Sequence record: PQ843332.1
DNA length: 64,000 nt
Direction: 5' to 3' (one strand)
Origin: Escherichia phage P-GXEC-L2P5
This document shows positions 2,432 through 56,210 of the stretch, piece after piece; position 1 is the stretch's first letter; every line of letters begins with the position of its first letter. Position numbers and translations under genes: made by a program. The notes beneath the pieces were generated by a model, which was not told the origin of the DNA, searched no databases, and worked only from the letters and a program-made list of their open reading frames with translations.

Positions 2432-2950
2432 TTAGTCTTCCAGTTCGAAATAAGTCTCGACGATTTCTTTTAAATCTTTGTGGAAGTCTTCGACGTCGTC
2501 GTCTTCCAGCTTGGCGATTGATTTGATCTCGAACGCTTCCAGCAGGTCGTCAAATTCGTCGTTAGCATCGTCGTCATCACCACCGGCGATAATCGCGGCA
2601 TACTGTTTGATTTCGTCGCGCATCTCTGCCAGCGGATCGGCATCTTTCTTACCTTTGCCTTTCGCCGGTGCTTTTTTAGCCTTAGCCGGTTTTTCGTCTT
2701 CGGCGTCTTCGTCGTCGTCATCTTCTACGACTTCTTTTTTGGCCTTACCCTTCGCCGGTGCTTTTTTAGCTTTAGCCGGTTTTTCGTCTTCGGCTTCATC
2801 GTCGCCATCTTCGACAACTTCTTTTTTGGCCTTAGACGGCTTCTTGTCGTCCTGCTTACCAACGGCAGCGCCAACGGTTTCATAATGCTTAGCGATGACT
2901 TCCAGTGCTACTACGCCGCGAGTGATCAGGTTTACGATTTGCTCAAACAT
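2432..2950 (-). CDS. acidic/lysine-rich repeat protein, first gene of the leftward operon
   Basis: Internal in-frame repeat EVVED(D)..EDEKPAKAKKAPAKGK twice, poly-D/E tracts, GGAG RBS. Confidence 0.6.
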   Translation of the reverse strand: MFEQIVNLITRGVVALEVIAKHYETVGAAVGKQDDKKPSKAKKEVVEDGDDEAEDEKPAKAKKAPAKGKAKKEVVEDDDDEDAEDEKPAKAKKAPAKGKGKKDADPLAEMRDEIKQYAAIIAGGDDDDANDEFDDLLEAFEIKSIAKLEDDDVEDFHKDLKEIVETYFELED

Positions 2951-3264
2951 GGTATATCTCCGATTGGTTAAGTTTAGGTGTCGGCAGTTAACTTCGTCGG
3001 TGGCCTTAACATATTGCCAGGTTGCGCGTTCTCCCGTTCGGGTAGTGGACCTGGTTATATAATCACGGTTGGGAATCCTGACACTTCGATCCGGCCCCTG
3101 CGTTGCCCCTCCTTTCGGGTAGTGGACCTGGTTATATAATCACGGTTGGGAATCCTGACACTTCGATCCGGCCCCTGCGTTGCCCCTCTCCAGTTTGCGT
3201 CCTGCATCCTGTCGACGAGGTGAATGATAGATTGGTTGCAGGATGGGTGTCAACAACTAATTTC

Positions 3265-3429: not shown

Positions 3430-3759
3430 ATGAATATCAAAGAAGCAATTGAAGTGTTATCTAATGCAATCCGCGGCGAAGCGGGTAAATCCTGGTATTA
3501 CACAAATGCGGTGGATACTCTGTTATTTGAAGTGTCCAGATTATCGCGTGCTGAGAAGGAGCTTACCGCGAAGCTGGAATTGCTCAACGGCACGGCAGCA
3601 AGCAAGCTGCAAAAACACAATGAAGAAATGGAAGAATACAAAAAGCAGGTTATCCGTTTGCGCAATGAGGGAAAGTCATGGGCAATGATCGCCGAGTTGA
3701 CCGGAATTAATCAGAGCACAGTGCGCTCCTGGGTACGCAATAATAAAACTTCAAAGTAA
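3430..3759 (+). CDS. HTH DNA-binding regulator
   Basis: C-terminal GKSWAMIAELTGINQSTVRSWV helix-turn-helix; first gene of the rightward operon. Confidence 0.6.
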   Translation: MNIKEAIEVLSNAIRGEAGKSWYYTNAVDTLLFEVSRLSRAEKELTAKLELLNGTAASKLQKHNEEMEEYKKQVIRLRNEGKSWAMIAELTGINQSTVRSWVRNNKTSK

Positions 3760-3846: not shown

Positions 3847-6111
3847 ATGAGCTTAATTAAATTCGCTGTAACACGACCCGCTAAAAAAGGCGAAAAAGCC
3901 AGGGCGGAAAACTTCCAGATGACTACCGAAGAGTTTTTCGAATTTATCAATGATGCGAAAGAAATCTCCTCGGTGCATATCAACAAAACGGAAGATAAAG
4001 CGGAGTATGCGCGCCGCAAGCGTAAGGCTGATGGGATTGTGGCTTATACCAGTGACGGATTACGCCGCAAGACCAGTGCGGTGGATCGCTCGATCCTGTT
4101 CTTCGATATTGACCGTACCGACACCCGCACCCTGCGCCGCTGCCGTAAGGCGTTCATCGACGCGGGACTGGAACATGTATTTCACACCACAACCGGCGAT
4201 CGCCACCCGCTGAAAGGTGGCACGCGTTGCGCTCGTTTCCTGGTGCTCACTGACAAGCCTGTACCGGCTGAAGACCTGGGCCGCGTCCAGTATGCACTAT
4301 TACACCAACTGGGCCTGTCAGATGTGGACTTCGACGATTGCACGAAAGACACAAACCGCCTTATGTACCTGCCTCACCAGCAATCGGTTGTTAAGTGTCA
4401 CTACGGCAAACGTGCCCGCGTCCGTCGTCTGCTTCGCCTGGCTGATAAGCTGGGAGTGGAAAAAGAGGAAGTACGCCGCGAGCTTACCCATGGCGACGAC
4501 GCAGTGGCAGACGGCATTCTGGACTGGTGCTTCCAGGCCGGATTCGAGGAGTTATCTTCTGGTCGCGGTTATGAAGTGCCGTGCCCGAACGAACATCTGC
4601 ATAGTGGCGAAGGGTCCACCGCTATCATGGTTAAGGATGGCGAGATCCGTTTCAAGTGTATGCACACCGGCAACGAGTGCTGTTCCGAACTGAACAGACA
4701 CCAGCACCTGGCGCTACGTCTTATCGGGATCCCGGACCACCTGAACGTCGAACCGCACAACATGTCACGTAAGCAAATCGCCGCCATCCTCCCAGGACTG
4801 GACGACGAGGAAGTGGAATCGTGCTATGCGCATATCGTTGATGCGGTCGGAGACGGCGACGAGTACGGCGGATGTACGGACGCAGACTTGGACAACGAGC
4901 CGGTTGCACTGTTCAGCAAGCACGACCCGATCATCGAGGGGTTGATTAACTTTAAATCGACCTGGTATCTTGCCGGTGAGTCGAACATCGGTAAGTCGTT
5001 CTATGTGCTGGGGCAAATGGGTGCGGTTGCCGCGGGGATTCCGTTCGGCGGCGCGAAGGTCGTCCAGTCTCATTGCTTCTATTTCGACGCGGAAGGTGGC
5101 GAAGCCTCCAACCAGCGTAAGGAAGCATTGCAGATTAAATATGAGCACGACCTGGACAAGCTGCACATTATCGATCTGCAATCACGCGGCTGGGATATCA
5201 CCAGCAAATCCGGCTTGCGTGAAGTTATCAGCTTCATCAACCGCACCGCTAACGGCGAGCCGGTTGGCCTGGTGGCGTTCGACTCACTCAACCAGACTGT
5301 TGCGCTGCGGTCCGCCGATGCTAAACCGTTCGACGAGAACAACGCCAGCGATATGGGTGAAGTGGTCAAAGCGCTGAAGGCCATTGCGGAAAATACAGGC
5401 GGCAGTGCGGGCGTCATCCACCACCCGGCGAAGGGTGCAAACGGCAGCAGATCTCCCCGTGGGTCCGGCGCGCTGCATGGCGCTGTCGATTCTGCGTTCT
5501 TCCTCGAGCAACCGGACGACAATCAGCCGGGCCAATTGAACCTGTATCACGAAAAGGCGCGTAACGGCATCAAGCAAGCGCCGCGCGGCTTCGTCCTGCT
5601 CAAGTGCAAGGTTAAGGTGGATCTCCGCAAGTCCGAAGCGTTCGAATCACACCAGTCCACCAGCACCGGGCCTGACTTCGGCGACGTGGTTGCCGGTTGG
5701 GACGTCAAGCCAATTGCATCCACGCCACGCGACGAGACTCTTTATCTCGTACCTGTCGCCCTGGCACCGTTCGCCATCGAACAGGCGAAGGCCGCGGGCA
5801 AGGCCGCAGTTAAGGATGAGAACGCCGCAGGACCGCGCAATGAAAAAGAGAAAGTGCTTTATGCGGCACTGGAAAAACTGATGGAAGATAACCCGGACCA
5901 TACCGGATTCAGTAAATCGGCAATTGTCCGCCAGGCGGGATTGGCAAAAGGTGGCACATCGACGAAGGCAATAGACGATATGGTGGAGCGCGGCGTGCTC
6001 GGTTTTTATACAGATCCGCACACCGGGGCCATCTATGGGTCGTCGAATATCGTCATTAAAACGAATATACCCATCACGCTTTCTGCGACCGATGACGATC
6101 TGAAAGATTAA
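3847..6111 (+). CDS. DNA primase/helicase (AEP primase-polymerase domain plus RecA-like P-loop NTPase)
   Basis: LFFDIDRTD and HVFHTTTG primase motifs; Walker A-like GESNIGKSFYVLG; 754 aa; start region duplicated at about 3770/3847. Confidence 0.85.
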   Translation: MSLIKFAVTRPAKKGEKARAENFQMTTEEFFEFINDAKEISSVHINKTEDKAEYARRKRKADGIVAYTSDGLRRKTSAVDRSILFFDIDRTDTRTLRRCRKAFIDAGLEHVFHTTTGDRHPLKGGTRCARFLVLTDKPVPAEDLGRVQYALLHQLGLSDVDFDDCTKDTNRLMYLPHQQSVVKCHYGKRARVRRLLRLADKLGVEKEEVRRELTHGDDAVADGILDWCFQAGFEELSSGRGYEVPCPNEHLHSGEGSTAIMVKDGEIRFKCMHTGNECCSELNRHQHLALRLIGIPDHLNVEPHNMSRKQIAAILPGLDDEEVESCYAHIVDAVGDGDEYGGCTDADLDNEPVALFSKHDPIIEGLINFKSTWYLAGESNIGKSFYVLGQMGAVAAGIPFGGAKVVQSHCFYFDAEGGEASNQRKEALQIKYEHDLDKLHIIDLQSRGWDITSKSGLREVISFINRTANGEPVGLVAFDSLNQTVALRSADAKPFDENNASDMGEVVKALKAIAENTGGSAGVIHHPAKGANGSRSPRGSGALHGAVDSAFFLEQPDDNQPGQLNLYHEKARNGIKQAPRGFVLLKCKVKVDLRKSEAFESHQSTSTGPDFGDVVAGWDVKPIASTPRDETLYLVPVALAPFAIEQAKAAGKAAVKDENAAGPRNEKEKVLYAALEKLMEDNPDHTGFSKSAIVRQAGLAKGGTSTKAIDDMVERGVLGFYTDPHTGAIYGSSNIVIKTNIPITLSATDDDLKD

Positions 6112-6255
6112 ATCCTGCGCGCATTGGTTGCCGGTATGGGAATTCCCATATCGCTAAAAGGTTAAATTTTGCGCGCATTGGTTGCCATTTTGAGTGTTTT
6201 TATCGGGTCGTATTGGTTGCCGTGTAGTGTAAATATAATGAATAGTTATGCAGTT

Positions 6256-6428
6256 TTATTGCATAAAGTAAGCGGGACAGAAAGCGGGACAAACAAGGGG
6301 CGGGACAAAGCGGGACAGCACCCCCGTCCCGCCCCGTATGGCGCGGCCTGGAGAGGAGCGGGACAGGCGGGACAACCCCCAGTCTTTCAGACTAGACGGG
6401 GGTCAGCGGCCCCCCTCGTCTGAGACTG
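6256..6428. repeat. iteron array: six GCGGGACA direct repeats preceded by TGCATAAA, then a GC-rich imperfect hairpin
   Basis: GCGGGACA at 6272, 6284, 6299, 6310, 6358, 6367; inverted repeat cagtctttcagactagacggggg / cccccctcgtctgagactg. Confidence 0.7.
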
Positions 6429-6645
6429 AATAAAATCCGGGGATTGCAAAATACACGGCAGCATGATGCGAAGTGCGGTCGCGGATGAACTAGGCAACCA
6501 ATGCGAGTTGCATTATGCGAAGTGAAAAATGCGGTTTGCAGTCACAGCAGATAGCGATCAACTTTTTCATGCGCGTGATTAATATTGGTTGCGTTCCGCC
6601 TGGCACCTTGCTATATTGGTTGCACCCCAACATGAGGACTGAACA

Positions 6646-6972
6646 ATGAAAGCGATTATCTGGAATTACGCAATGGCTATGGCGGCGGCACAAGAAGCGG
6701 CGGAGTTCGCCGGTGAAGGAGCGGAAGCGGTCGAAAGACTATCGGCAGCGTGGTCCGTTGTTCGCGTCACGCAGCAGGCCATCGCTTGTATGCTGGAGCG
6801 CCGCTTCGACACGATGGCGGAGATCCAGCCACTGGCGAACGCAATCCAGGACTACGCGCTTGCATTTGCCCGTGAGCGCCTTGCGTATCGCTTCGGGATC
6901 GGCGAGACGGCAGTGACAAACGTCGCCCGGATTAAAGCCCAGCGTGAACTATTCGCCCAGCTTGCGAAATAA
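6646..6972 (+). CDS. hypothetical protein (108 aa, alanine-rich helical)
   Basis: ORF conserved in unit 2 (56423..56749). Confidence 0.55.
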   Translation: MKAIIWNYAMAMAAAQEAAEFAGEGAEAVERLSAAWSVVRVTQQAIACMLERRFDTMAEIQPLANAIQDYALAFARERLAYRFGIGETAVTNVARIKAQRELFAQLAK

Positions 6973-10176: not shown

Positions 10177-11473
10177 ATGCACCCGCAAACTAAAATTACC
10201 GATGAGCAATTGATCACAGAAATTCAGGCAGGGACTACGGTTAAAGAGATTGCGAAGAAATACGGCATTGCACTTCGAAATGTCTATATGCGCAAAGCCC
10301 GCCTGTCGAAAAAGGGGATTGGTCATGGCAATTATGCCGTGATCCGTAAGCGCGTTGCCGATGGCTTTGGGGTTAAGCGCGTATCGGCCCTGGTGCGCGG
10401 TAATGGCGAAGAGGTCATGTCGTGGGTCATCACTGAGCAGGACAAGGAGCGCCAACTCGAAGCTATGCGCGCTGTTGTCGAGGGTATGAACAGCGAAATC
10501 ACACCGGCAGCGCCAGTAAACGCCCCGCCAGTACCGATCCCATGCGCGCTGTTGTCGAGGGTATGAACAGCGAAATCACACCGGCAGCGCCAGTAAAAGC
10601 CCCGCCAGTACCGATCCAGGCGCTAGACTTGCTCAACCTGTACACCGTGTCCGACTTCCACCTGGGTATGCTGGCATGGGGCGAGGAGACTGGCGAAGAT
10701 TGGGATATGGCGATCGCCGAAGACCTGTTCTACCGCTGGTTTGTCGAAGCCTTCGCCCGCGCACCGGACGCAGGCACTGCCGTGATCAATATCCTCGGCG
10801 ATATGGCGCACTTTGATAGCCTTGATGCCGTCACACCGGCAAGCGGTCACGTATTGGACGCCGACACCCGATACCAGAAGTTAGTCCGCTACATGATCCG
10901 CATGGTGCGCAACGTGGTAGACCTGGCGCTGCAAAAACACCACAAAGTCAAACTGCTAATCGTCCAGGGTAATCATGACGAGTCAGGCATGATTTGGCTT
11001 GCTGAGATGTTCAACACGCTGTACGAGAACGAGCCGCGCGTCGATGTGGATACGATGAGTCGGGCATGATTTGGCTTGCTGAGATGTTCAACACGCTGTA
11101 CGAGAACGAGCCGCGCGTCGATGTGGATACGTCCCCGGACGTCTACAAGATGGTGCAGCACGGTAAGACCACACTATTTTTCCACCACGGGCACAAAGCG
11201 CGATTTGACGCTATCGAGCCGGTCATGATTTCGAAATTTCGTGAGGCGTTCGGGTCCAGCCAGTACAGCTATGCGCACGTAGGACACCTGCACCACCAGA
11301 AGATTGTCGAATCGCGCAACATGATTGTTGAACAGCACCGCACGCTTGCCGCGAAGGATGCCTACGCCAGCCGAGGCGGTTGGATGAGCGGACGCAGTGC
11401 AAACGTGATAACCTATAGCGCCAACTACGGCGAAGTAGCGCGCTTAACCATTAGCCCGGAAATGTTGAAATGA
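10177..11473 (+). CDS. HTH domain fused to calcineurin-like metallophosphoesterase; frame broken by duplications near 10490..10600 and 10980..11075
   Basis: N-terminal HTH TVKEIAKKYGIALRNVYMRKARL; phosphoesterase motifs DFHLGM, GDMAHFD, GNHDE, HHGH, GHLHH; reads as one ORF in unit 2 apart from a single duplication. Confidence 0.7.
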
Positions 11474-12428: not shown

Positions 12429-13890
12429 TGCGTAACTATGCGGCAGAACACCGCGCACTGGAACGCGCGATCGCAAAGCGTAACCGACCGCCACGCCCGA
12501 CACGCGTTGCGCAGGCCGTCCGCCTTTACCAGCCAGATTGCCTTCCGCACCAGGTCGAACTGCTGCGTGACACGAAGACTAAAATCCTCGGCCTGTGTTC
12601 CGGCTTCGGTGGTGGGAAGTCGTGGGTCGCAGCCCGTAAGGTAATCCAGCTTCTGACACTTAACCCCGGTCATGATGGCATCGTAACAGAACCGACGATT
12701 CCCCTCCTGGTTAAAATCATGTATCCGGAATTGGAAAAGGCATTCGACGAGGCGGGCTTCCGGTGGAAGTTCAATAAGCAGGACAAGATCTATAACGTGC
12801 TTGTGAAAGGCAAATGGACCCGCGTTATCTGTGAGTCAATGGAGAACTATACCCGCCTGATCGGGGTTAATGCCGCGTGGATTGTTGCCGACGAGTTCGA
12901 TACCACGAAGCAAGACGTCGCGCTGGCGGCATATCACAAATTGCTCGGTCGTCTGCGTGCTGGCTTCGTCCGCCAGTTCGTCATCGTGTCAACGCCTGAA
13001 GGCTACCGGGCGATGTATCAAATTTTCGAAGTGGAGAAGGATAGCCAGAAGCGTTTGATCCGGGCGAAGACCACCGATAACCACCACTTACCGGCAGACT
13101 TTATCGACACGCTGCGCAGCCAATACCCGGCTAACCTGATTGATGCGTACTTGAACGGCCTGTTTGTCAACCTTACGTCGGGCGCGGTGTACAAGATGTT
13201 CAACCGGGAGGAGAACGCCAGCACCGAAGAAGTGCAGCCGGAAGACACGCTGATTATCGGCATGGACTTTAACGTCACGAAGATGGCGGCGGTCGTGTAC
13301 GTCAGACGGCAGCGCATCACCGAAAACAAGGAGTTCCGCGACGAGATCCACGCAGTGGATGAATTTGTGGACCTGTTTGATACCCCGGCTATGATTGAGG
13401 CGATCGAGGAGCGCTACCCCGATCATTGTGCTGCCGGTCGTGTTGTCGTTTACCCGGATAGCAGCGGCAAGTCTCGCAAGACTGTTAACGCATCGTCGTC
13501 AGATATCGCACAACTGGAAGACGCGGGCTTCGAGGTGGAATACGACAGTGTTAACCCACCTGTGAAAGACCGATTGATCGCGATGAATACTATGATGTGC
13601 AACTCGAAGGGTGTGCGCCAGTATTTGTTAACCCGCCTGTGAAAGACCGATTGATTGCGATGAATACGATGATGTGCAACTCGAAGGGTGTGCGCCAGTA
13701 TTTTGTCAACCTGGATAAATGCCCTACACTAGCGAAATGTCTGGAACAGCAGGTTTACGACCTGAAGAAAGGCGAGCCGGATAAAACCGCCGGTGTGGAC
13801 CACATGAACGATGCCGCGGGCTATCCAATTGCGCACCTGTTCCCAGTGATTCGCCCAATCGCCGTTGTTCCAACTGTAGACTTCTACTAA
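12428..13890 (+). CDS. terminase large subunit (ATPase plus nuclease); 3' part frame-broken by duplication near 13560..13680
   Basis: Walker A GFGGGKS, Walker B IVADEFD, C-terminal nuclease region VDHMNDAAGYP. Confidence 0.85.
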
Positions 13891-13900
13891 GGAAACGACC

Positions 13901-15652
13901 ATGACCGTTAACGTAGACAACCAGCACCCGCTCTATGCGCGCATCGCGCCAGAGTGGAAAATGATCCGTGACTGCGTAGCAGGGGAGCGCGTGACAACCA
14001 GCACCCGCTCTATGCTCGCATCGCGCCAGAGTGGAAAATGATCCGTGACTGCGTAGCAGGGGAGCGCGCCGTGAAGGCGTGCGGGCCATTATACCTGCCA
14101 CACCCAGCAAGCGGCGACACCACCGACCCTAAATCGCGTGCGCGTTATAAGGCGTATAAGCAGCGCGCCGTCTTCCTGAACGCCACCGCCAGAACCCTTA
14201 ACGCACTGTTAGGCGTGGCCTTCGCGAAGCCGGTGAGTATTGACCTTTCCGGGGCAATGGCTGACCTGATTGATGACGTAGACGGCAGCGGGATGCCACT
14301 GGCGCAACTCCTGCGCGGTGCTATGTCGGAAGTGCTGCAATCAGGCCGTGCGGGCTTTATGGTGGACTACGATCGCCAGGCGCATTTTGATGAACTGGGT
14401 AACGTAGTTCCGCAGACAGCCGCCGAGATGGCGTCACACCGCCCTCTTATCCGCCTGTACACGGCAGAACAGATCATCAACTGGCGGCAGACCAACGGCG
14501 TCGATACGCTAATTGTGCTGAAGGAAACGGACGAAATCAGCACCGAAGACCCGGACGACTTCGCAAACCACGAAGTAACAATCTGGACCGAGCTTCGCAT
14601 GATTAACGGTGCGGCACACGCCCGCCGCTGGTACTACAACGCGGACACGTCCGAGGTGCAAATGGACTTGCCGCGCGGCTTCACCCGAACCGACCTTGTA
14701 CCACTGGTGGATGCTGCCGGTAACGCGCTTACGCAACTACCGTTTTGCTGGTGCGGTGCGGTGGACAACAACGCAACGCCTGACGCCGCTCCGCTGGCGG
14801 ATATCGCATCCATCAACATTAAGCACTACAACGCCGAAGCGGACGTCGCCGAGATTGCGCACATCGTGGGCCAGCCTACCCTAGTTGCGACGGGCTTGAC
14901 CCAATCATGGGCGGACAAGAACCTGAAGGGCGGCATTGCCCTCGGTGCGACTAAGGGCGTTATCCTGGGCCAGAACATGGACGCTAAACTGATCCAGGCG
15001 GAGGAGCGCAACTTGTCTGTTGCACTGTGTGAGCGTCGCGAATTGCAAATGGCTAAACTTGGCGCGGCCCTGGTCGAGAAGGGGACCGCACCTAAGACGG
15101 CAACGGAAGCGGCCTACGATGCGCAGTGGCTAAACTGGGCGCGGCCCTGGTCGAGAAGGGGACCGCACCTAAGACGGCAACTGAAGCGGCCTACGATGCG
15201 CAGACTGATAACAGTATCCTGTCACTGATTGCCGGTAACGTCGAGAAGGCTTTCAACCGTGCGCTGCAAATCGTCCAGCTATTCACGGGCGACACCGCCG
15301 ACCAGCGTGTGACGCTGAATAAGTTCTACACCGAAATCACGGTTGATGCGCAGCTTATGACCGCGATGATGTCGGGTGTGCAGACGGGTACGGTCCGCCT
15401 GGCTGACTTCATCAAGTGGATGATGGCGCAGGGTGTCATCGACGACTCGCAAACCGTCGAGCAGGTGGAAGACGAATTGCGAAATCAGAATCCATTGCCT
15501 CAAATGTCCCCGTTATTGATGACTCGCAAACCGTCGAGCAGGTGGAAGACGAACTGCGAAATCAGAATCCATTGCCTCAAATGTCCCCTGATGCGGTAGA
15601 ATCTACCGAAGAAGACCCGGACAAGGTAGCGGACAATGGCGAAGACAATTAA
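13901..15652 (+). CDS. portal protein; frame broken by three duplications
   Basis: Large ORF directly after TerL and before the head morphogenesis gene; assignment by position and size only. Confidence 0.6.
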
Positions 15653-16816: not shown

Positions 16817-17138
16817 GTATGCAGCGATTGGGCTGGTTATCGGTCTGGTGGTAGGATTCTGGCTAGGTGACTCCTATCGCGCTGGCGTAGTGGCGGAGGC
16901 GGCGCAAGAAGCGCAAGCAGAAGCCCAACGGCAGCAAACTAAAGTTATTGAGCGCTCCGTGCAGGCCGAACAAGCCCGCGACGTAGAATACCGGACTATC
17001 ACGAAAGAGGTTGTTAAATATGTTACGCGCCCTAACCGCCCTGATTGTAGTTTTGATGCTGAGCGCGTGCGGATCAAGCAACGTGCCGTTGATGCCGCTA
17101 ACGGAGTCGGCACTGCGACCGCCGTGCAAGTTCGATAG
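16809..17138 (+). CDS. i-spanin (Rz-like)
   Basis: N-terminal transmembrane segment AAIGLVIGLVVGFWLG then coiled-coil AEAAQEAQAEAQRQQ; GTG start with GGGGG RBS (alternative ATG 16779). Confidence 0.55.
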   Translation: MIKYAAIGLVIGLVVGFWLGDSYRAGVVAEAAQEAQAEAQRQQTKVIERSVQAEQARDVEYRTITKEVVKYVTRPNRPDCSFDAERVRIKQRAVDAANGVGTATAVQVR

Positions 17139-17327
17139 AGCGCGTGCGGATCAAGCAGCGTGCCGTTGATGCCGCTAACGGAGTCGGCACTGCGACCGCC
17201 GTGCAAGTTCGATAACCCGTCCGCGGACCCCGACGAAGATTTGATGATTGACGTGAAAAATATGGAATGCGGGGCGAAGCTGAGGGCGCAGGTCCTGGAG
17301 TTGCAGCAGATAATTCGGGGGCCGTAA
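17020..17327 (+). CDS. o-spanin lipoprotein (Rz1-like) overlapping the i-spanin in the +1 frame; interrupted by duplication 17140..17214
   Basis: Signal peptide with lipobox LSAC|G, proline-rich mature part, AAGAGG RBS. Confidence 0.55.
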
Positions 17328-17342
17328 TGGCCCCCTTTTATT
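17316..17342 (+). terminator. rho-independent terminator
   Basis: GGGGGCC-gtaat-GGCCCCC followed by TTTTATT. Confidence 0.75.
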
Positions 17343-18105
17343 AGCGCGGAATACCGCAGATTTCGTTTAACGTCTTCACGTCCAGTGCCACCGCCGTGGA
17401 CTTCGGCTTGTCCGGGTATGGAATAAACTGTTCCACTTCAGGCCACGCCTTGATCAGCTTCTTATCGGTATTGTGCATATCCAGCACACCGGTAACGGTT
17501 AGTTTGAACGCGTCATACTTAGCTCGCAACTCGCGGCGGGACTTGTCGTTGCGATCCAGGCACTTACAGAAATCATGGTCCGCCGGGTAGTCTACGCGAC
17601 CGCGCGGAAGATATATCGGCAGCGATTTTCCGTCCTCGTCCACTTCGCACACTGAAGCCAGCATAACTTCCTCGTACCCCGGTACGATATCACCGAGATC
17701 GGGAGATAGCTTGTTCATATATTTCTCTTCCCAGTATCCGCGGTGCAGGCGGTATCGGTATCCATCGCCGCTCAATGATACGGTGCGAACATTACCGCCT
17801 GCGTTGATATCGAATCCGGCGCTATAAACGCGGCCGATGCCTTTTGGCCGGTCGGAGTTATAGCTATACGTCGCCTTGTCGGTGTAAACGCTAACGCCAT
17901 ACATCTGCGACTGGTTATCGCGGATTTCTGCGATATATGCGCGTAACTCGGCGAACGTGCGAATGCCTTCCGGCATACAGTCCAGCGTAATGGCGTACGC
18001 CAAGTCGCGAGAGTCCATCATGATGGATTTTGCTTCGGTCGCGATTTCATGGTCGCGCAGGATGTTAGCCAGAATCTGGTTTTTAATGTCTTTCGTCAGT
18101 CTCAT
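17341..18105 (-). CDS. hypothetical protein (254 aa), opposite-strand moron gene
   Basis: ORF 17341..18192 with the likely start at MRLTKDIK (AAGAGG RBS); no recognisable motif. Confidence 0.5.
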   Translation of the reverse strand: MRLTKDIKNQILANILRDHEIATEAKSIMMDSRDLAYAITLDCMPEGIRTFAELRAYIAEIRDNQSQMYGVSVYTDKATYSYNSDRPKGIGRVYSAGFDINAGGNVRTVSLSGDGYRYRLHRGYWEEKYMNKLSPDLGDIVPGYEEVMLASVCEVDEDGKSLPIYLPRGRVDYPADHDFCKCLDRNDKSRRELRAKYDAFKLTVTGVLDMHNTDKKLIKAWPEVEQFIPYPDKPKSTAVALDVKTLNEICGIPR

Positions 18106-24673: not shown

Positions 24674-25160
24674 TGAAGCGGGACAAGCGGGACGTCCCGT
24701 TTTGTCCCGCCCCTCAAAAACTGCATACTTATTTACTATTATTGCATAAACTAAAAGCGGGACAAGCGGGACGTCCCGATCTGGCACCCCTCTGAAAAGC
24801 GCATACCTATTCAGTTTTACTGCATAAACCAAACGGGACAAAAAGCGGGACAAACAAGGGGCGGGACAAAGCGGGACAGCACCCCCGCCCCGCCAGTGCT
24901 GCCGCGGGGTTTAGCCGATCGGGACAGGCGGGACAAAGCCCAGTCTTTCAGACTAGACGGGGGTCAATGGCCCCCCTCGCGCGGTTTTTAGCCGATCGGG
25001 ACAGGCGGGACAAAGCCCAGTCTTTCAGACTAGACGGGGGTCAATGGCCCCCCTCGTCTGAGACTGAATAAGGTTTGTTTTAAATTCGCTGATACAATGT
25101 TTCAGACTAGACGGGGGTCAATGGCCCCCCTCGTCTGAGACTGAATAAGGTTTGTTTTAA
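24674..25160. repeat. non-coding iteron/hairpin region between the chaperone and tape measure genes
   Basis: agcgggacaagcgggacgtcccg twice (24677..24699, 24756..24778) with 12-bp palindrome CGGGACGTCCCG; GCGGGACA x4 at 24833..24895; GC-rich hairpin repeated; TGCATAAA boxes; AT-rich tract 24720..24760. Confidence 0.7.
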
Positions 25161-25211
25161 ATTCGCTGATACAATGTCAACCGGCAACTGCATAAAAAAG
25201 GGGGCTGCATA

Positions 25212-30928: not shown

Positions 30929-33900
30929 ATGACGATTATCTACGACGTCACAGGCCATAAAGGCGGCGGCGGCAAACAGCACACCCCACAGGAGACGCCG
31001 GACAGCCTGCATTCGCTGGCTAAAATCCGCATCTTGCTCGCACTGGGCGAAGGTGAGTTCGAAGGCATTACCGACCCTAACGAATTACGGCAGCGCGTAT
31101 ACCTGGACGGAACACCGATCCAGAACGCCGACCTGTCAGAAAACTTCCCCGGCGCGCGCGTGGAGTTCCGCCCAGGCACACAGCACCAGGACGTGATCCA
31201 CGGATTTTCAGCGGTGGAAAGTGAGCAATCCGTAGGCGTAAAACTGGAAAACGGCACGCCGTGGGTGCGCCAGATTAACGACACCAGTCTTGACGCCGTG
31301 CGCATTCGAATCGGCATTCCGGCCCTGTACACCAACGAAGACAACGGCGACCTGGTGGGCGGGCGCATCGACTACAAAATCGTTGTGTATACGGACAACG
31401 CTGATCCGCGTGAGTTTACCTTCGCTGCCGTTGGTAAAACAATGTCGCTGTACGAGCGCGACCACCGCATCGAGTTACCGCCGAACGTGAATACCGGCTG
31501 GCGCGTGGAAGTTCACCGCACAACGGCAGATTCCACATCGGCGAAAGTGGTGAACGATATTCAGGTACAGTCCATCACTGAGATTATTGACGCCCGCCTG
31601 CGTTACCCGCTAACCGCGCTGTTGTTTGTGGAGTTCGACGCCAAAGCGTTCCAGAACATCCCGCGCGTGTCCATTAAGTGCAAAGGTCGCAAAGTTCTAA
31701 TACCGAACAACTACGACCCGATCAATCATACCTATGCCGGGTACTGGGACGGCACGTTTAAACGCGCATGGACGGATAACCCTGCGTGGCACTGGTACGA
31801 TATTTGTATTACTGAGCGCTTCGGCCTCGGTCGGTTAAACGCGCATGGACGGATAACCCTGCGTGGCACTGGTATGATATTTGTATTACTGAGCGCTTCG
31901 GCCTCGGTCGCCGGATCAAGCCGCAAATGCTAAACAGATATGCGCTCTACCAGATTGCGAAGCGCTGCGATCAACTGGTCAGCGACGGCAACGGCGGGCA
32001 GGAAATCCGATTTAAGAATGATATGTACATCCAGTCGCAGACCGACGCCTGGACCGTGCTTAAGGATTTAGCCGCCATCTTTGCCGGTATGACCTGGTGG
32101 GGCAACCAGATGTTGAATATTGTAAGCGATCAGCCGGTCGCAGCGGTATCGCACACTATCACCAACGCCTCGGTCATTGATGGTCGATTCGACTACGCGT
32201 CAGGGAGCCAGAAAACTCGGTATTCCACGTTCGCTGTAGCATACGGCAACCCGAAGAACCACTATGAAGATGCCATTGCTACGGGACAGCGTGTCGAACT
32301 GGTACGCCGCCATAAGATTAACCGTCTGGATATAACGGCGATCGGCTGTACGCGTGAGTCAGAAGCGCAACGCCGCGGGCACTGGGCGCTAATCTCCAAC
32401 CAGCTTGACCAGCAAGTTAGCTTTAAGGTTGGCATGGAGGGACTTTTCTTTATTCCGGGTAGTGTAGTCGCGATCGCCGATACAAACATTTCTGGCGGCT
32501 TCGAGACACGCGGCGGTCGCCTGTTGTCAGATCCTGGCACGCGGACTGTGCTGAACACAGACAGCGAAATCACGTTCCGCCCTGGGGATAAATTCCTGGT
32601 ACGCACCGATAGCGGTAATGTGGAGACTCGCGAGATTGCCAGCGTCAACGGCAACAAGGTTACGCTAAAAACCGCACTGGACGCCGACCCGATTCCTGAT
32701 CAGCCGTTTTGCGTCGATGGCAACGATATCCAGTTGCAGAAGTTCCGCATCACCGACCTGGAATATGACGACTCTACCAGCACTTTTTCAGTGCGCGGGA
32801 TCGAATACAACGATAGCAAATATGATGCCGTTGATAATGGCGCTCGCCTTGACCCAGGCATCTTTACGCAAGTTCCTGACGGCGTAATGAAGGGGCCGGA
32901 GTCCGTGACCATTACCCCGTCGCAGATTTCATCGCAAGGCCAGCTAATCACCAACGTGGATATTGTGTTCCCGCCGGTGAAGGATGCCGTTGTTTATGAG
33001 ATCCAGTGGCGACGTACCAGCTTGCAGAATATGGCGGTACAGTGGGGAAACGACTGGGTAAACATCCCCCGCACGGCATCGAACGGCGCGCACATCCCTA
33101 ACGTGTTCTCCGGTAACTACCAAGCGCGCGTCCGCGCGATCGGTATGGGCGAGATTTCATCCCCGTGGGTGTCGTCCGCTATCACGCCGGTGGAAGGTCG
33201 TCTCGGCGGTCTTAACGCGCCTATCATCACCAACGCGATTTCGGGCCTTCACCAAATTTTGTGGAAGTGGAACCACAACAACGCCGCGACGGATATTTCG
33301 TACACCGAGCTTGAAGTTCGCAAGACGGGTGAAACGGAATGGAAATTCCTAACCAACGTCCCATACCCGGGGTCGGAGTATGCGCAAACGTCGCTGGAGT
33401 TCGGCATCTATCAGCAGTTGCGCGCCCGTGTAGCGGATAAAATCGGCAACCTGTCGGACTGGTCGGCCCCGTTTGAAGGGCAGGTGAGCAGCAGTTGCGC
33501 GCCCGTGTCGCGGATAAAATCGGCAACCTGTCGGACTGGTCGGCCCCGTTTGAAGGGCAGGTGAGTGACAATGTTGACGAGTACATGAAGGGGCTGGACG
33601 ACGAGTTCTTGACTTCTGAGGACGGTAAACGCTTCCAGGAAGCGATCGACACCATGCCGCAAGGCATTTATGAGGCTATGCTCACCGACGCACAGCAATT
33701 GTTTAACGCCCGCGCCGAGTACAAGGGGATTTATGCAGAAATCTCGGTCGCGTATAACGTGGCGGCAGATGCCCACCAGGCGGTAGCGCAACTGGAAACG
33801 TTGATCGGTACTCGCCTTGACGATGCGGAAGCGGCAATCCACACGTTGCAGACCGCGCAAAGCACGCACGAGCAAGCGTTCGCCCAGTACCAACAAACTG

Positions 33901-34433
33901 TTGCCGCTAAGTTCGGTCAGCAGTCCGCCGCGATCGAGCAGAAGATGACGTCCTCGTTTAACCACTCCGGTGGTAGCGCCACATACAGCCTTAAGGCGGG
34001 TGTGACGTATAACGGTACTTACTATGATGCGGGTATGCAGCTTTCCGTTGTAACGTCGGGCAGCGCGGTTAAATCTCGTATCGCGTTCAAAGCCGACCAG
34101 TTCTACATCATGCACCCATCTAATGGGTCGCTTTCGTCCGCGTTCATCGTCGACGGAGGACAGGTGTACATCGACACGGCACGAATCAAGAACGCGTCCA
34201 TTAACTTCGCACAGATCACGGACACGCTGCGGTCTAATAACTTCGTTGCGGGGTCGTCAGGGTGGAACCTGCCTAAATCGGGTAACGCGGAATTGAACAA
34301 CGTAACGGTCCGCGGCAACCTGTACGCCACATCGGGTAACTTCGGGTTTTCTGGTGGGACCGTGACGATCGACAAGACAGGCGTAAACGTGCCGTTACCT
34401 GGCGGGGGGAGGGTGAAAGTCGGGACGTGGTAA
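30929..34433 (+). CDS. central tail fiber / host specificity protein J-like; frame broken by duplications
   Basis: About 1150 aa; lambda J-like N-terminal region; last gene of the tail tip module. Confidence 0.8.
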
Positions 34434-43942: not shown

Positions 43943-44056
43943 GTCTCCCAAAAATGGCGGGACAAGCCCGCCGTATTAATTATTTTTGCTCTGCGCCGGT
44001 AATGTTCTTTCATCGTCATGTCTCCCAAAAATGGCGGGACAAGCCCGCCGTATTAA

Positions 44057-53463: not shown

Positions 53464-55959
53464 ATGAGCTTAATTAAATTCGCTGTAACACGACCCGCTA
53501 AAAAAGGCGAAAAAGCCAGGGCGGAAAACTTCCAGATGACCACCGATGAATTTTTCGAATTTATCAATGATGCGAAAGAAATCGCGAAAAAGCCAGGGCG
53601 GAAAACTTCCAGATGACCACCGATGAATTTTTCGAATTTATCAATGACGCGAAAGAAATATCATCGGTGCATATCAACAAGACCGAGGATAAAGCGGAGT
53701 ATGCGCGCCGCAAGCGTAAGGCCGATGGCATCGTAGCGTATACCAGTGACGGCTTACGCCGCAAGACCAGCGCGGTGGACCGCTCGATCCTGTTCTTTGA
53801 TATTGACCGCACCGACACTCGCACCTTACGCCGCTGCCGTAAGGCGTTCATTGACGCGGGTCTGGAACACGTATTCCACACAACCACCGGCGACCGCCAC
53901 CCGCTTAAAGGCGGCACGCGTTGCGCTCGCTTCCTGGTACTCACTGATAAGCCGGTCCCGGCTGAAGACCTGGGCCGTGTCCAGTATGCGCTATTACATC
54001 AACTTGGTCTGTCGGATGTGGACTTCGACGATTGCACGAAAGACACAAACCGCCTGATGTACCTGCCGCACCAGCAATCGGTTATTAAGTGCCACTACGG
54101 CAAACGTGCCCGCGTCCGTCGTCTGCTTCGCCTGGCGGATACGCTTGGCGTGGAGAAGGAAGAAGTACGCCGCGAGCTTACCCAGGGCGACGACGCAGTG
54201 GCGGACGGGATTCTGGACTGGTGCTTCCAGGCAGGATTCGAGGAGTTATCTTCCGGTCGCGGTTATGAAGTGCCGTGCCCGAACGAACATCTGCACAGCG
54301 GCGAAGGGTCGACGGCTATCATGGTCAAGGATGGCGAGATCCGTTTCAAGTGTATGCACACCGGCAACGAGTGTTGCTCTGAGCTGAACAGACACCAGCA
54401 CCTGGCGCTACGTCTTATCGGGATACCGGACCACCTGAACGTCGAGCCGCACAACATGTCACGTAAGCAAATCGCCGCCATCCTCCCAGGGCTGGACGAC
54501 GAGGAAGTCGAATCCTTATATGAACATATTGTTGATGCGGTTGGCGACGGCGAAGAATACGGCGTGTGCACCGATGCGGATCTGGATAACGAGCCGGTCG
54601 CACTGTTGTTGATGCAGTTGGCGACGGCGAAGAATACGGCGTGTGCACCGATGCGGATCTGGATAACGAGCCGGTCGCACTATTCAGTAAGCACGACCCG
54701 ATCATCGAAGGCCTGGTCAACTTCAAATCGACCTGGTACATGGCTGGCGAGTCGAACATCGGTAAATCGTTCTACGTGCTGGGCCAAATGGGCGCGGTTG
54801 CCGCGGGGATTCCGTTCGGCGGTGCGAAGGTCGTCCAGTCTCATTGCTTCTATTTCGACGCGGAAGGTGGCGAAGCCTCCAACCAGCGTAAGGAAGCATT
54901 GCAGATCAAATATGAGCACGACCTGGACAAGCTGCACATTATTGACCTGCAATCACGCGGCTGGGATATCACCAGCAAATCAGGCTTGCGTGAAGTTATC
55001 AGCTTCATCAACCGCACCGCTAACGGCGAGCCGGTTGGCCTGGTGGCGTTCGACTCACTCAACCAGACTGTTGCGCTGCGGTCCGCCGATGCAAAACCGT
55101 TCGACGAGAACAACGCCAGCGATATGGGCGAAGTGGTCAAAGCGCTGAAGGCCATTGCGGAAAATACAGGCGGCAGTGCGGGCGTCATCCACCACCCGGC
55201 GAAAGGTGCAAACGGCCGCAGATCTCCCCGTGGGTCCGGCGCGCTGCATGGTGCTGTCGATTCTGCGTTCTTCCTGGAGCAACCGGACGACAACCAGCCA
55301 GGTCAATTGAACCTGTATCACGAAAAGGCACGTAACGGCATCAAGCAAGCGCCGCGCGGCTTCGTCCTGCTCAAGTGCAAGGTTAAGGTGGATCTCCGCA
55401 AGTCCGAAGCGTTCGAAGCCCACCAGTCCACCAGCACCGGGCCAGACTTCGGCGATGTGGTTGCCGGTTGGGACGTCAAACCAATTGCGTCCACCCCGCG
55501 CGACGAGACTCTATACCTCGTACCGGTAGCCCTGGCACCGTTCGCGATAGAACAGGCGAAGGCGGCGGGCAAAGCCGCAGTTAAGGAAGAGAACACCGCC
55601 GGTCCGCGCAACGAAAAAGAGAAAGTGCTTTATGCGGCCCTGGAAAAACTGATGGCAGATAACCCTGACCATACTGGATTCAGTAAATCGGCAATTGTAC
55701 GCCAGGCGGGACTCGCTAAGGGTGGCACTTCGACGAAGGCAATAGACGATATGGTCGAGCGCGGCGTGATTGGTTTCTATACAGATCCGCACACCGGGGC
55801 CATATATGGGTCGTCGAATTTAGTCATCAAATCTGATATCCCCTGATTGGTTTCTATACAGACCCGCACACCGGGGCCATATATGGGTCGTCGAATTTAG
55901 TCATCAAATCGGAGATCCCCATAACGCTTTCGGCGACCGATGACGACCTGAAAGACTAA
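53464..55959 (+). CDS. unit 2: DNA primase/helicase; frame broken by duplications
   Basis: ORFs 53613..55148 and 54641..55846 homologous to 3847..6111. Confidence 0.8.
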
Positions 55960-56030
55960 ATCCTATTTTGAGTGTTTTTAGCTGGTCGCATTGGTTGCCG
56001 TGCAGTATAAATATAGTGAATAGTTATGCA

Positions 56031-56210
56031 ATAAAACTGCATAAAGTAAGCGGGACAAAAAGCGGGACAAACTTGGGGCGGGACAAAGCGGGACAGCACC
56101 CCCGTCCCGCCCCGGATGACGCGGCCTGGAGAGGAGCGGGACAGGCGGGACAACTCCCAGTCTTTCAGACTAGACGGGGGTCAGCGGCCCCCCTCGTCTG
56201 AGACTGCATA
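56031..56210. repeat. unit 2: GCGGGACA iteron array plus GC-rich hairpin
   Basis: Same TGCATAAA / GCGGGACA / hairpin architecture as 6256..6428. Confidence 0.7.

Follow-up and report, generated by a model that had tools for sequence, protein, structure and literature searches.

Our analysis of a 64,000-nucleotide stretch of Escherichia phage P-GXEC-L2P5 (record PQ843332.1; this whole stretch is called the window here) points to a compact set of direct repeats and hairpins, array B (6230-6428), which probably serves as a replication origin of the iteron type or, at the least, as the cognate array to which the phage's own primase-helicase binds. Array B lies inside the 534-bp gap that separates the primase-helicase gene (3847-6111) from the following co-directional gene (6646). 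From 5' to 3', the order is three ATTGGTTGC motifs, a TATAAT-like element, an A+T tract, iterons 1-4, an inverted copy that closes hairpin 1, iterons 5-6 and hairpin 2. The ATTGGTTGC motifs are a family separate from the iterons, and the TATAAT-like element was read by eye and is uncalled by the promoter scan. The locus comprises the following features:

3847..6111, plus strand: primase-helicase gene, 754 amino acids, proposed initiator (Pfam and PHROG matches)
5842..6057, plus strand: predicted C-terminal winged-helix domain, approximately amino acids 666-737, proposed iteron reader (structure model)
6230..6271, no strand: A+T tract, 81% A+T, directly 5' of the iterons, with the palindrome TTATGCA-N7-TGCATAA at 6246-6266 (composition)
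6272..6317, plus strand: iterons 1-4, GCGGGACA at 6272, 6284, 6300 and 6310 (exact match)
6297..6335, no strand: hairpin 1, in which GGGGCGGGAC at 6297-6306 pairs with GTCCCGCCCC at 6326-6335, the loop enclosing iteron 4 (fold)
6358..6374, plus strand: iterons 5-6, GCGGGACA-g-GCGGGACA (exact match)
6380..6428, no strand: hairpin 2, a 49-nt G+C-rich imperfect palindrome closing the array (fold)

The sequence-only reading of this DNA had reported six GCGGGACA repeats and a hairpin downstream of the primase-helicase gene, and both are there: exact plus-strand copies start at 6272, 6284, 6300, 6310, 6358 and 6367, the repeats spanning 6272-6374. It had also held that a similar motif density in coding DNA or in shuffled sequence would speak against a signal. 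Neither is seen: the window contains 24 exact copies, compared with 2.81 +/- 1.56 in dinucleotide-preserving shuffles (n = 100; shuffle maximum 8), and in the genome of phage slur05 all 12 exact GCGGGACA 8-mers fall in two non-coding arrays, with 0 in coding sequence. The second arm of hairpin 1, GTCCCGCCCC, is itself an inverted iteron copy; its arms are 10 bp long with a 7-bp core, and the DNA fold reaches -8 kcal/mol (z = -4.1). The 81% A+T tract at 6230-6271 is a candidate DNA-unwinding element.

The window derives from a Dhillonvirus, an HK578/SO-1-like virulent E. coli siphophage whose best match is slur05 (98.6%), and slur05 (NC_028901, 43.9 kb, genus Dhillonvirus; locus label L001) served as the clean reference. 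Self-comparison revealed approximately 70 duplications in tandem, 75-85 bp long and for the most part 77 bp, spread over the whole window; many of them break or frameshift genes, among them the tape-measure gene. It also revealed a second copy of the first 14.5 kb from 49700 onward, 90-92% identical ('unit 2'), in which the primase-helicase gene is split by duplications (53613-55148 and 54641-55846). Examples of the duplications, followed by the unit-2 locus, are:

391-467/468-544: artefact duplication
3750-3826/3827-3903: artefact duplication
24903-25100/24980-25177: artefact duplication
43920-43994/43997-44071: artefact duplication
56008..56206, plus strand: array-B locus of the second strain variant (unit 2), with A+T tract, six iterons (56050-56152) and both hairpins

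All of this points to a mis-joined assembly, a graph walk with k = 77 overlaps retained through two strain variants, in which the duplications are artefact and no real biology. Unit 2 is the other strain's copy of the same locus and therefore not a within-genome repeat. The recurrence of the architecture that had been reported at 56031..56210 is thus real as a copy (56050-56206) but not as an independent instance, being an assembly artefact or strain variant. The true genome is approximately 44 kb, with two iteron arrays, B (6230-6428) and A. The GC-skew profile simply tracks gene orientation, and no use was made of it for origin placement.

Within Dhillonvirus, we compared 27 unique array copies from approximately 15 genomes, using a count of copies and spacings in place of a column-wise conservation test because of a 1-nt indel between iterons 5 and 6. 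Six CGGGACA heptamers at spacings of 12, 16, 10, 48 and 8/9 are kept in 13 of the 16 unique array-B sequences and 10 of the 11 array-A sequences, with variable spacers and loops. The 158 matching Dhillonvirus records have, as a rule, two array places each, A and B being present in essentially all. The stem of hairpin 2 is essentially invariant in 13 unique Dhillonvirus copies and its 9-nt loop hypervariable; compensatory change was seen in 0 of 18 pairs, which is uninformative either way because the stem does not vary. A G+C-rich hairpin behind the last iteron is also found in Cornellvirus, phage 16-3 and IMG/VR relatives. As a side observation, the 7-nt loop of TTATGCA-N7-TGCATAA reads GTTTTAT in unit 1 (6246-6266) and its reverse complement, ATAAAAC, in unit 2 (56024-56044), and the ATAAAAC orientation also occurs in many strains (IMG/VR Dhillonvirus loci L017-L145). 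A loop present in both orientations is a DNA-level signature, and to judge from these sequences the loop of a hairpin or cruciform seems to have been inverted.

Such features bear on the idea that the array gives rise to a structured non-coding RNA, for instance a protein sponge built on GGA repeats, or an element that acts in antitermination or processing. The region does fold better as RNA than shuffles (z = -2.3), and in Dhillonvirus all six repeats lie on the transcribed strand, but we regard this explanation as highly improbable. Relatives carry the motif on both strands and in coding sequence, the palindrome loop occurs in both orientations, and hairpin 2 lacks compensatory change in all 18 pairs. 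Rfam 15 gave no match at gathering thresholds over the whole slur05 genome, and only chance-level microRNA and small nucleolar RNA matches over 6050-6700.

An iteron array read by the primase-helicase is consistent with the company that the motif keeps across phages. Scanning IMG/VR for two nearby GCGGGACA copies returned at least 120 loci; among the matches listed, 58 carry 5-16 CGGGACA/TGTCCCG copies within 300 bp (G+C 0.5-0.7), almost all of them without DNA similarity to slur05. When the open reading frames (ORFs) within 3.5 kb of the listed arrays were compared with the slur05 proteome, the primase-helicase was the only recurrent match (21 loci; 27 after clustering), Dhillonvirus contigs aside. 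Where a helicase-domain match could be mapped in the listed loci, the array follows on its 3' side at a distance of a few hundred bp, mostly in the same orientation. In 15 further listed loci, the array is situated inside a gene of 235-357 amino acids matching O-like or DnaD-like replication-initiator PHROGs:

L028, L032, L037, L049, L054, L055, L057, L059, L069, L076, L077, L084, L087, L104, L117: loci with the array inside the initiator gene

The copies in these in-gene CGGGACA arrays all share one orientation and are translated as SGT / RDK-rich linker peptides. Search ascertainment may contribute to two unrelated initiator types sharing CGGGACA. We assembled a motif-blind set, in which ascertainment bias is removed, consisting of 80 loci (79 usable) fetched solely by protein similarity to a distant family member, with a narrower alignment as the seed. 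At least 4 CGGGACA copies lie within 700 bp 3' of the gene in 32 of the 79 loci, at 4.35 per kb compared with 0.13 per kb elsewhere in the loci. In most of the other motif-blind loci, that position is taken by repeats of some other heptamer: CCGGACA (up to 16 copies), CGTGACA, TGGGACA, GGTAACA, CGTACCA, CATCACA, GATCACA and more. Within the 600 bp behind the gene, the median copy number of the commonest 7-mer is 8, compared with 3 in control windows; it is present at least 6 times in 55 of 75 loci but in only 3 of 606 controls. The motif search across the genome and related phages that had been proposed for this locus finds the arrays tracking the primase-helicase gene.

The repeats had been attributed to a sequence-specific binding protein or to a replication or packaging signal. 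Sequence-specific binding sites stand, with replication as the best reading; packaging is not supported, as the arrays are far from the terminase genes and track a replication gene across phages. Small-terminase binding sites typically contain short motifs in several copies, and several GenBank records are linearised approximately 100 bp behind array B, as might be expected of a pac or cos site recognized by the terminase. The terminase genes, however, begin approximately 5.4 kb downstream (11856 onward), and a terminase homologue is near only 2 of the listed loci, whereas the array follows the primase-helicase from phage to phage. Published predictions place packaging elsewhere, as headful packaging at the small-terminase gene (PMC9022532) or at a Dhillonvirus cos site, ATCTTAAGGG (PMC10673088), a sequence that is near neither array. 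Of all the explanations considered, a packaging site is the one to which we give the least credence.

The reading of array B as a set of cognate iterons is further suggested by relatives in which the motif has changed. Full-length primase-helicase homologues at 43-98% identity were recovered with the full-length query, which was needed, as the C-terminal 155 amino acids alone returned one fragment. The homologue at 68% identity (L233) retains GCGGGACA. That at 67% (L232) has GTGGCAA at the positions homologous to iterons 1-4, between homologous flanks, and another relative, with a 49% identical protein, has a CTCGCAA iteron. In Cornellvirus FSL SP-031 (a Salmonella phage of subfamily Guernseyvirinae; KC139518, L235; protein 44% identical), the repeat is GGGGAGA, in six direct copies and one inverted copy directly behind the stop codon (13756-13907). 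The A+T tract ('gaatagttatgca'), the inverted-copy hairpin and the closing G+C hairpin are all kept, and 7 of the 9 genome copies of GGGGAGA are in the array. Rhizobium phage 16-3 (NC_011103, L228) has at least 12 full GCGTGACA copies plus variants at 2743-3116; the array starts at the p101 stop codon and finishes with a G+C-rich hairpin that has inverted copies on its flanks. The arrays of the cultured phages 16-3 and FSL SP-031 are unannotated in their records. Relatives' arrays start 0-30 bp behind the stop codon (array B, 160 bp behind), and their iterons occur in both orientations. All copies have changed together while the architecture was kept, which is what one would expect of cognate iterons.

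The same relatives weigh on the small helix-turn-helix (HTH) regulator encoded at 3430-3759, which had been proposed as a binder of the repeats. In Dhillonvirus-like relatives and Cornellvirus, the primase-helicase gene has a small HTH gene in front of it, as orf56 precedes orf904 in pRN1 (PMC4234260), and the protein has clear HTH and sigma-70 region-4 signatures. Its DNA-binding HTH half is nonetheless identical in L232 (GTGGCAA) and L233 (GCGGGACA) despite their different iterons, and no homologue lies near CGGGACA arrays in unrelated contigs, leaving the repeats very unlikely to be its operators. The HTH-phosphoesterase (10177..11473), put forward alongside it, is likewise not supported, no homologue of it being found near such arrays in other phages. 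A better fit for the HTH protein is ATTGGTTGC, which numbers 15 copies in slur05 against 0.47 expected, mostly intergenic, and is kept in both L232 and L233. Its copies are:

6123, 6177, 6212, 6494 (minus strand), 6584 and 6615: ATTGGTTGC in the window
2205, 2222, 3880, 6822, 22821, 22834, 33061, 33501-34001, 36808 and 43649: ATTGGTTGC in slur05 (L001)

By eye, some copies overlap the -35 position of TATAAT-like elements. On these sequence patterns the HTH / sigma-70 region-4-like protein more plausibly goes with ATTGGTTGC than with the iterons, and the pairing suggests a transcription-control system.

For the iterons, the candidate reader is the primase-helicase itself. Its core (amino acids 357-531) is a RecA-type, RepA-like helicase (Pfam AAA_25, E = 4.9e-20); the protein matches PHROG 3228, 'replicative helicase-primase', and primase PHROGs over amino acids 16-177. 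No Toprim domain was detected in it, and sequence searches found no solved homologue. A model of the C-terminal 100 amino acids, built from 26 homologues, has three helices and a beta wing (predicted local distance difference test score, pLDDT, 76). The family alignment A1 (IMG/VR loci) combines a common helicase core with a C-terminal segment (consensus WRxxFY...RKAFxRA...L....W), while the N-terminal primase modules are swapped; read by eye, some of its N-termini are AEP-like and others Toprim/zinc-finger-like (L024, L102, L070). The alignment indicates that domains have apparently been shuffled about one unit, helicase plus putative origin reader, that stays constant. The C-terminus is 26-30% identical in relatives with other iterons, compared with 63-69% for the helicase core, and the putative DNA-contacting helices read FSKSAILKQAG..KGGTNTT in L233 but FSRRAILNAAG..AGGSSTK in L232.

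Under the replication model, C-terminal winged helices of several protomers would read the CGGGACA heptamers (six direct ones at fixed spacing plus one inverted), and the bound protomers would nucleate a hexameric RecA-type helicase at the array. The 81% A+T tract, extruded palindromes or both would give the single strand for self-loading, after which the N-terminal primase domain would prime and the phage DNA polymerase I extend.

Several observations count against assigning the array to this protein or to replication. The best Foldseek matches of the C-terminal model are winged-helix domains, but at weak E-values (0.07-0.7), and the N-terminal domain is likewise divergent (35% identical) in relatives with other iterons. 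The evidence tying the winged helix to the iteron is correlative: at matched helicase identity, C-termini are more alike in same-iteron pairs (0.35 vs 0.27; 0.77 vs 0.51), which speaks for the link, but the pairs are non-independent and the differences modest. In Dhillonvirus the recognition helix is TSTKAIDDMVERG, markedly unlike the KKAFxRA helix found in distant relatives that share the CGGGACA motif. The same heptamer also lies inside O-like initiator genes, and motif identity alone therefore does not identify the binder. When the primase-helicase C-terminus was compared by hhalign with the N-terminal, DNA-binding domain of the O-like initiators, no homology was detected (probability 0.3%); searched against PDB sequences, the profiles of the two domains yielded no more than marginal GntR/FadR-like matches, for the O-like domain. 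The counts of IMG/VR loci given above overstate independent cases, many of those loci being near-duplicates. In the searchable literature we found no experiment on binding or origin activity for any member of the primase-helicase family, and no published description of a Dhillonvirus origin or of one belonging to this family. Searches on the origin of Dhillonvirus, HK578, SO-1 or 16-3 returned nothing relevant, and the motif string gave only chance matches, for example to primers. Finally, termination of the early operon by the hairpins is possible.

That last point belongs to a transcription-control explanation, which also involves array A:

24676..25177, plus strand: array A, between the tail-chaperone genes and the tape-measure gene, inflated here by 77-bp duplications

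Its true form is found at 16936-17243 of slur05 (surrounding stretch 16862-17560), an iteron region of approximately 400 bp that is non-coding and lies inside the tail operon, 16.8 kb from array B. Array A consists of two palindromic modules and, behind them, a copy of array B (86% identical); each module holds two iterons in direct and two in inverted orientation. Over the segment 6356-6433, which includes hairpin 2, identity to 24994-25071 in array A is 93.6%. The phage has two separated cis elements with the same iteron. By eye, each palindromic module is followed by a weak promoter-like pair, TGCATA-N17-CATAAT/CATAAA. The GenBank record of Sodalis phage SO-1 already annotates a 'region A' and a 'region B' of direct, inverted and palindromic repeats with mutual similarity. 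Array A is conserved across Dhillonvirus, and no second array was found in Cornellvirus FSL SP-031, the sole outgroup genome checked. By analogy, this Dhillonvirus-specific second copy may be a second origin or a cis partner like the crr of P4.

In the transcription-control explanation, by contrast, replication does not start here at all: the hairpins would end or attenuate the early operon and the repeats would bind a regulator, possibly the primase-helicase as autoregulator or roadblock, with B at the early-to-middle boundary and A modulating the tail genes. Both arrays are indeed co-oriented with transcription between co-directional genes, the annotators of phage CS16 placed a terminator on hairpin 1, promoter-like -10 elements and operator-like ATTGGTTGC motifs flank array B, and array A has its weak promoter-like pairs. 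Yet no T run lies behind any array-B hairpin, and scans for intrinsic terminators and sigma-70 promoters call nothing within 6112-6645. Across phages the array tracks a replication protein and no operon boundary, relatives' iterons occur in both orientations, and some arrays are internal to genes for O-like initiators, where termination would do harm. We consider this explanation unlikely as a replacement for an origin; a transcription-boundary module is possible as a second role of array B.

A hairpin that does look like a terminator lies near the DNA helicase gene:

43954-43974, duplicated at 44031-44051 by a 77-bp artefact duplication, both strands: bidirectional terminator-like hairpin GGCGGG-acaag-CCCGCC

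It stands immediately upstream of the minus-strand DNA helicase gene, with ATTTTT following on that gene's strand, and qualifies as an intrinsic terminator on both strands. The sequence-only reading had listed it (43964..43985) as a related inverted element; it is instead an ordinary terminator-like hairpin unrelated to the iteron family, sharing the GCGGGACA 8-mer only because that 8-mer lies within the GGCGGG stem and ACAAG loop.

Beyond this single phage, we tentatively propose, with somewhat less than even confidence, a large undescribed replicon class spanning Dhillonvirus, Cornellvirus, rhizobiophage 16-3 and hundreds of uncultivated contigs. Its members would share a self-loading RecA-type (RepA-like) primase-helicase with its own C-terminal winged-helix reader, and heptamer iterons with a closing palindrome directly behind its own gene. 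Specificity would be re-set by concerted change of iteron and winged helix, and Dhillonvirus would have an origin in two halves, as in P4, the second of them copied into the middle of the tail operon. If the origin reading of array B is confirmed, it would give a defined origin and initiator for Dhillonviruses and, by extension, for Guernseyvirinae and many uncultivated phages, of use in engineering widely used E. coli and Salmonella phages, in making phage-derived replicons and in interpreting defence systems that detect proteins of replication. It would also extend to a RecA-type helicase the own-origin-reader logic of AAA+ and superfamily-3 enzymes, namely the Rep proteins of Staphylococcus aureus pathogenicity islands (SaPIs), P4 alpha, pRN1, large T antigen and E1. 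The natural series of iterons and winged helices (CGGGACA, GTGGCAA, GGGGAGA, CTCGCAA, CGTGACA and others) offers material on the evolution of DNA-recognition specificity. Interest lies mainly in the breadth of the family, this specificity series and the odd conserved second array in a tail operon.

The closest functional parallel is provided by SaPI Rep and PriRep. SaPI Rep reads, through a C-terminal winged helix, 6-12 iterons, some of them inverted, directly behind the rep ORF and next to an A+T-rich region, and is self-loading; in PriRep5 a primase is fused to a SaPI-type Rep (PMC9371898). Array B shares with these systems the placement of iterons just 3' of the helicase ORF. The ATPase of SaPI Reps is of the AAA+ (MCM-like) class, whereas the core here is RecA-type AAA_25, and no sequence homology between the two was detected. 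The A+T region of SaPIs has an iteron set on either side; the one here is 5' of the direct iterons, with G+C-rich palindromes after them and one inverted copy. Phage 16-3 and the uncultivated locus L089 are SaPI-like in this respect, their A+T tracts lying between opposed iterons.

Replication of P4 requires two cis elements, ori and crr, several kb apart, with crr just 3' of the alpha gene and TGTTCACC as the iteron. The ori/crr pair parallels arrays A and B, again two separated elements with the same iteron. In P4 alpha, primase and helicase are joined in one polypeptide to a C-terminal winged helix that binds the origin by reading octamer repeats, according to the passage of PMC4234260 that cites Ziegelin & Lanka 1995 and Yeo 2002. 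The P4 enzyme, however, joins a Toprim primase to a superfamily-3 helicase, whereas the helicase here is AAA_25 and no Toprim domain was detected. The ORF904 protein of pRN1 has primase, helicase and winged helix, a small regulator encoded upstream and an origin 3' of the gene that needs a long stem-loop and has no iterons (PMC4234260). A small regulator gene upstream is found in both pRN1 and Dhillonvirus, and the pRN1 stem-loop resembles the conserved hairpins 3' of the Dhillonvirus gene. The two differ in that ORF904 has a superfamily-3 helicase and lacks iterons, and their stem-loops are unrelated in sequence.

In lambda, as proposed here, direct iterons are read by the initiator of the same locus, and the 15 listed IMG/VR loci with arrays inside O-like/DnaD-like genes resemble it further. 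The lambda ori lies inside the O gene, whereas the Dhillonvirus array is intergenic and the proposed initiator is the helicase itself. RepA of RSF1010 belongs to the same helicase fold family (RepA-like, AAA_25), and its origin also contains iterons. The RSF1010 iterons are bound by a separate initiator, RepC; by contrast, the helicase polypeptide here appears to carry its own (predicted) origin reader. By analogy, then, array B would work like the origins of SaPI Rep, P4 alpha and pRN1 while being built from different parts, with an ATPase of the RecA-type class in place of an AAA+ or superfamily-3 one.

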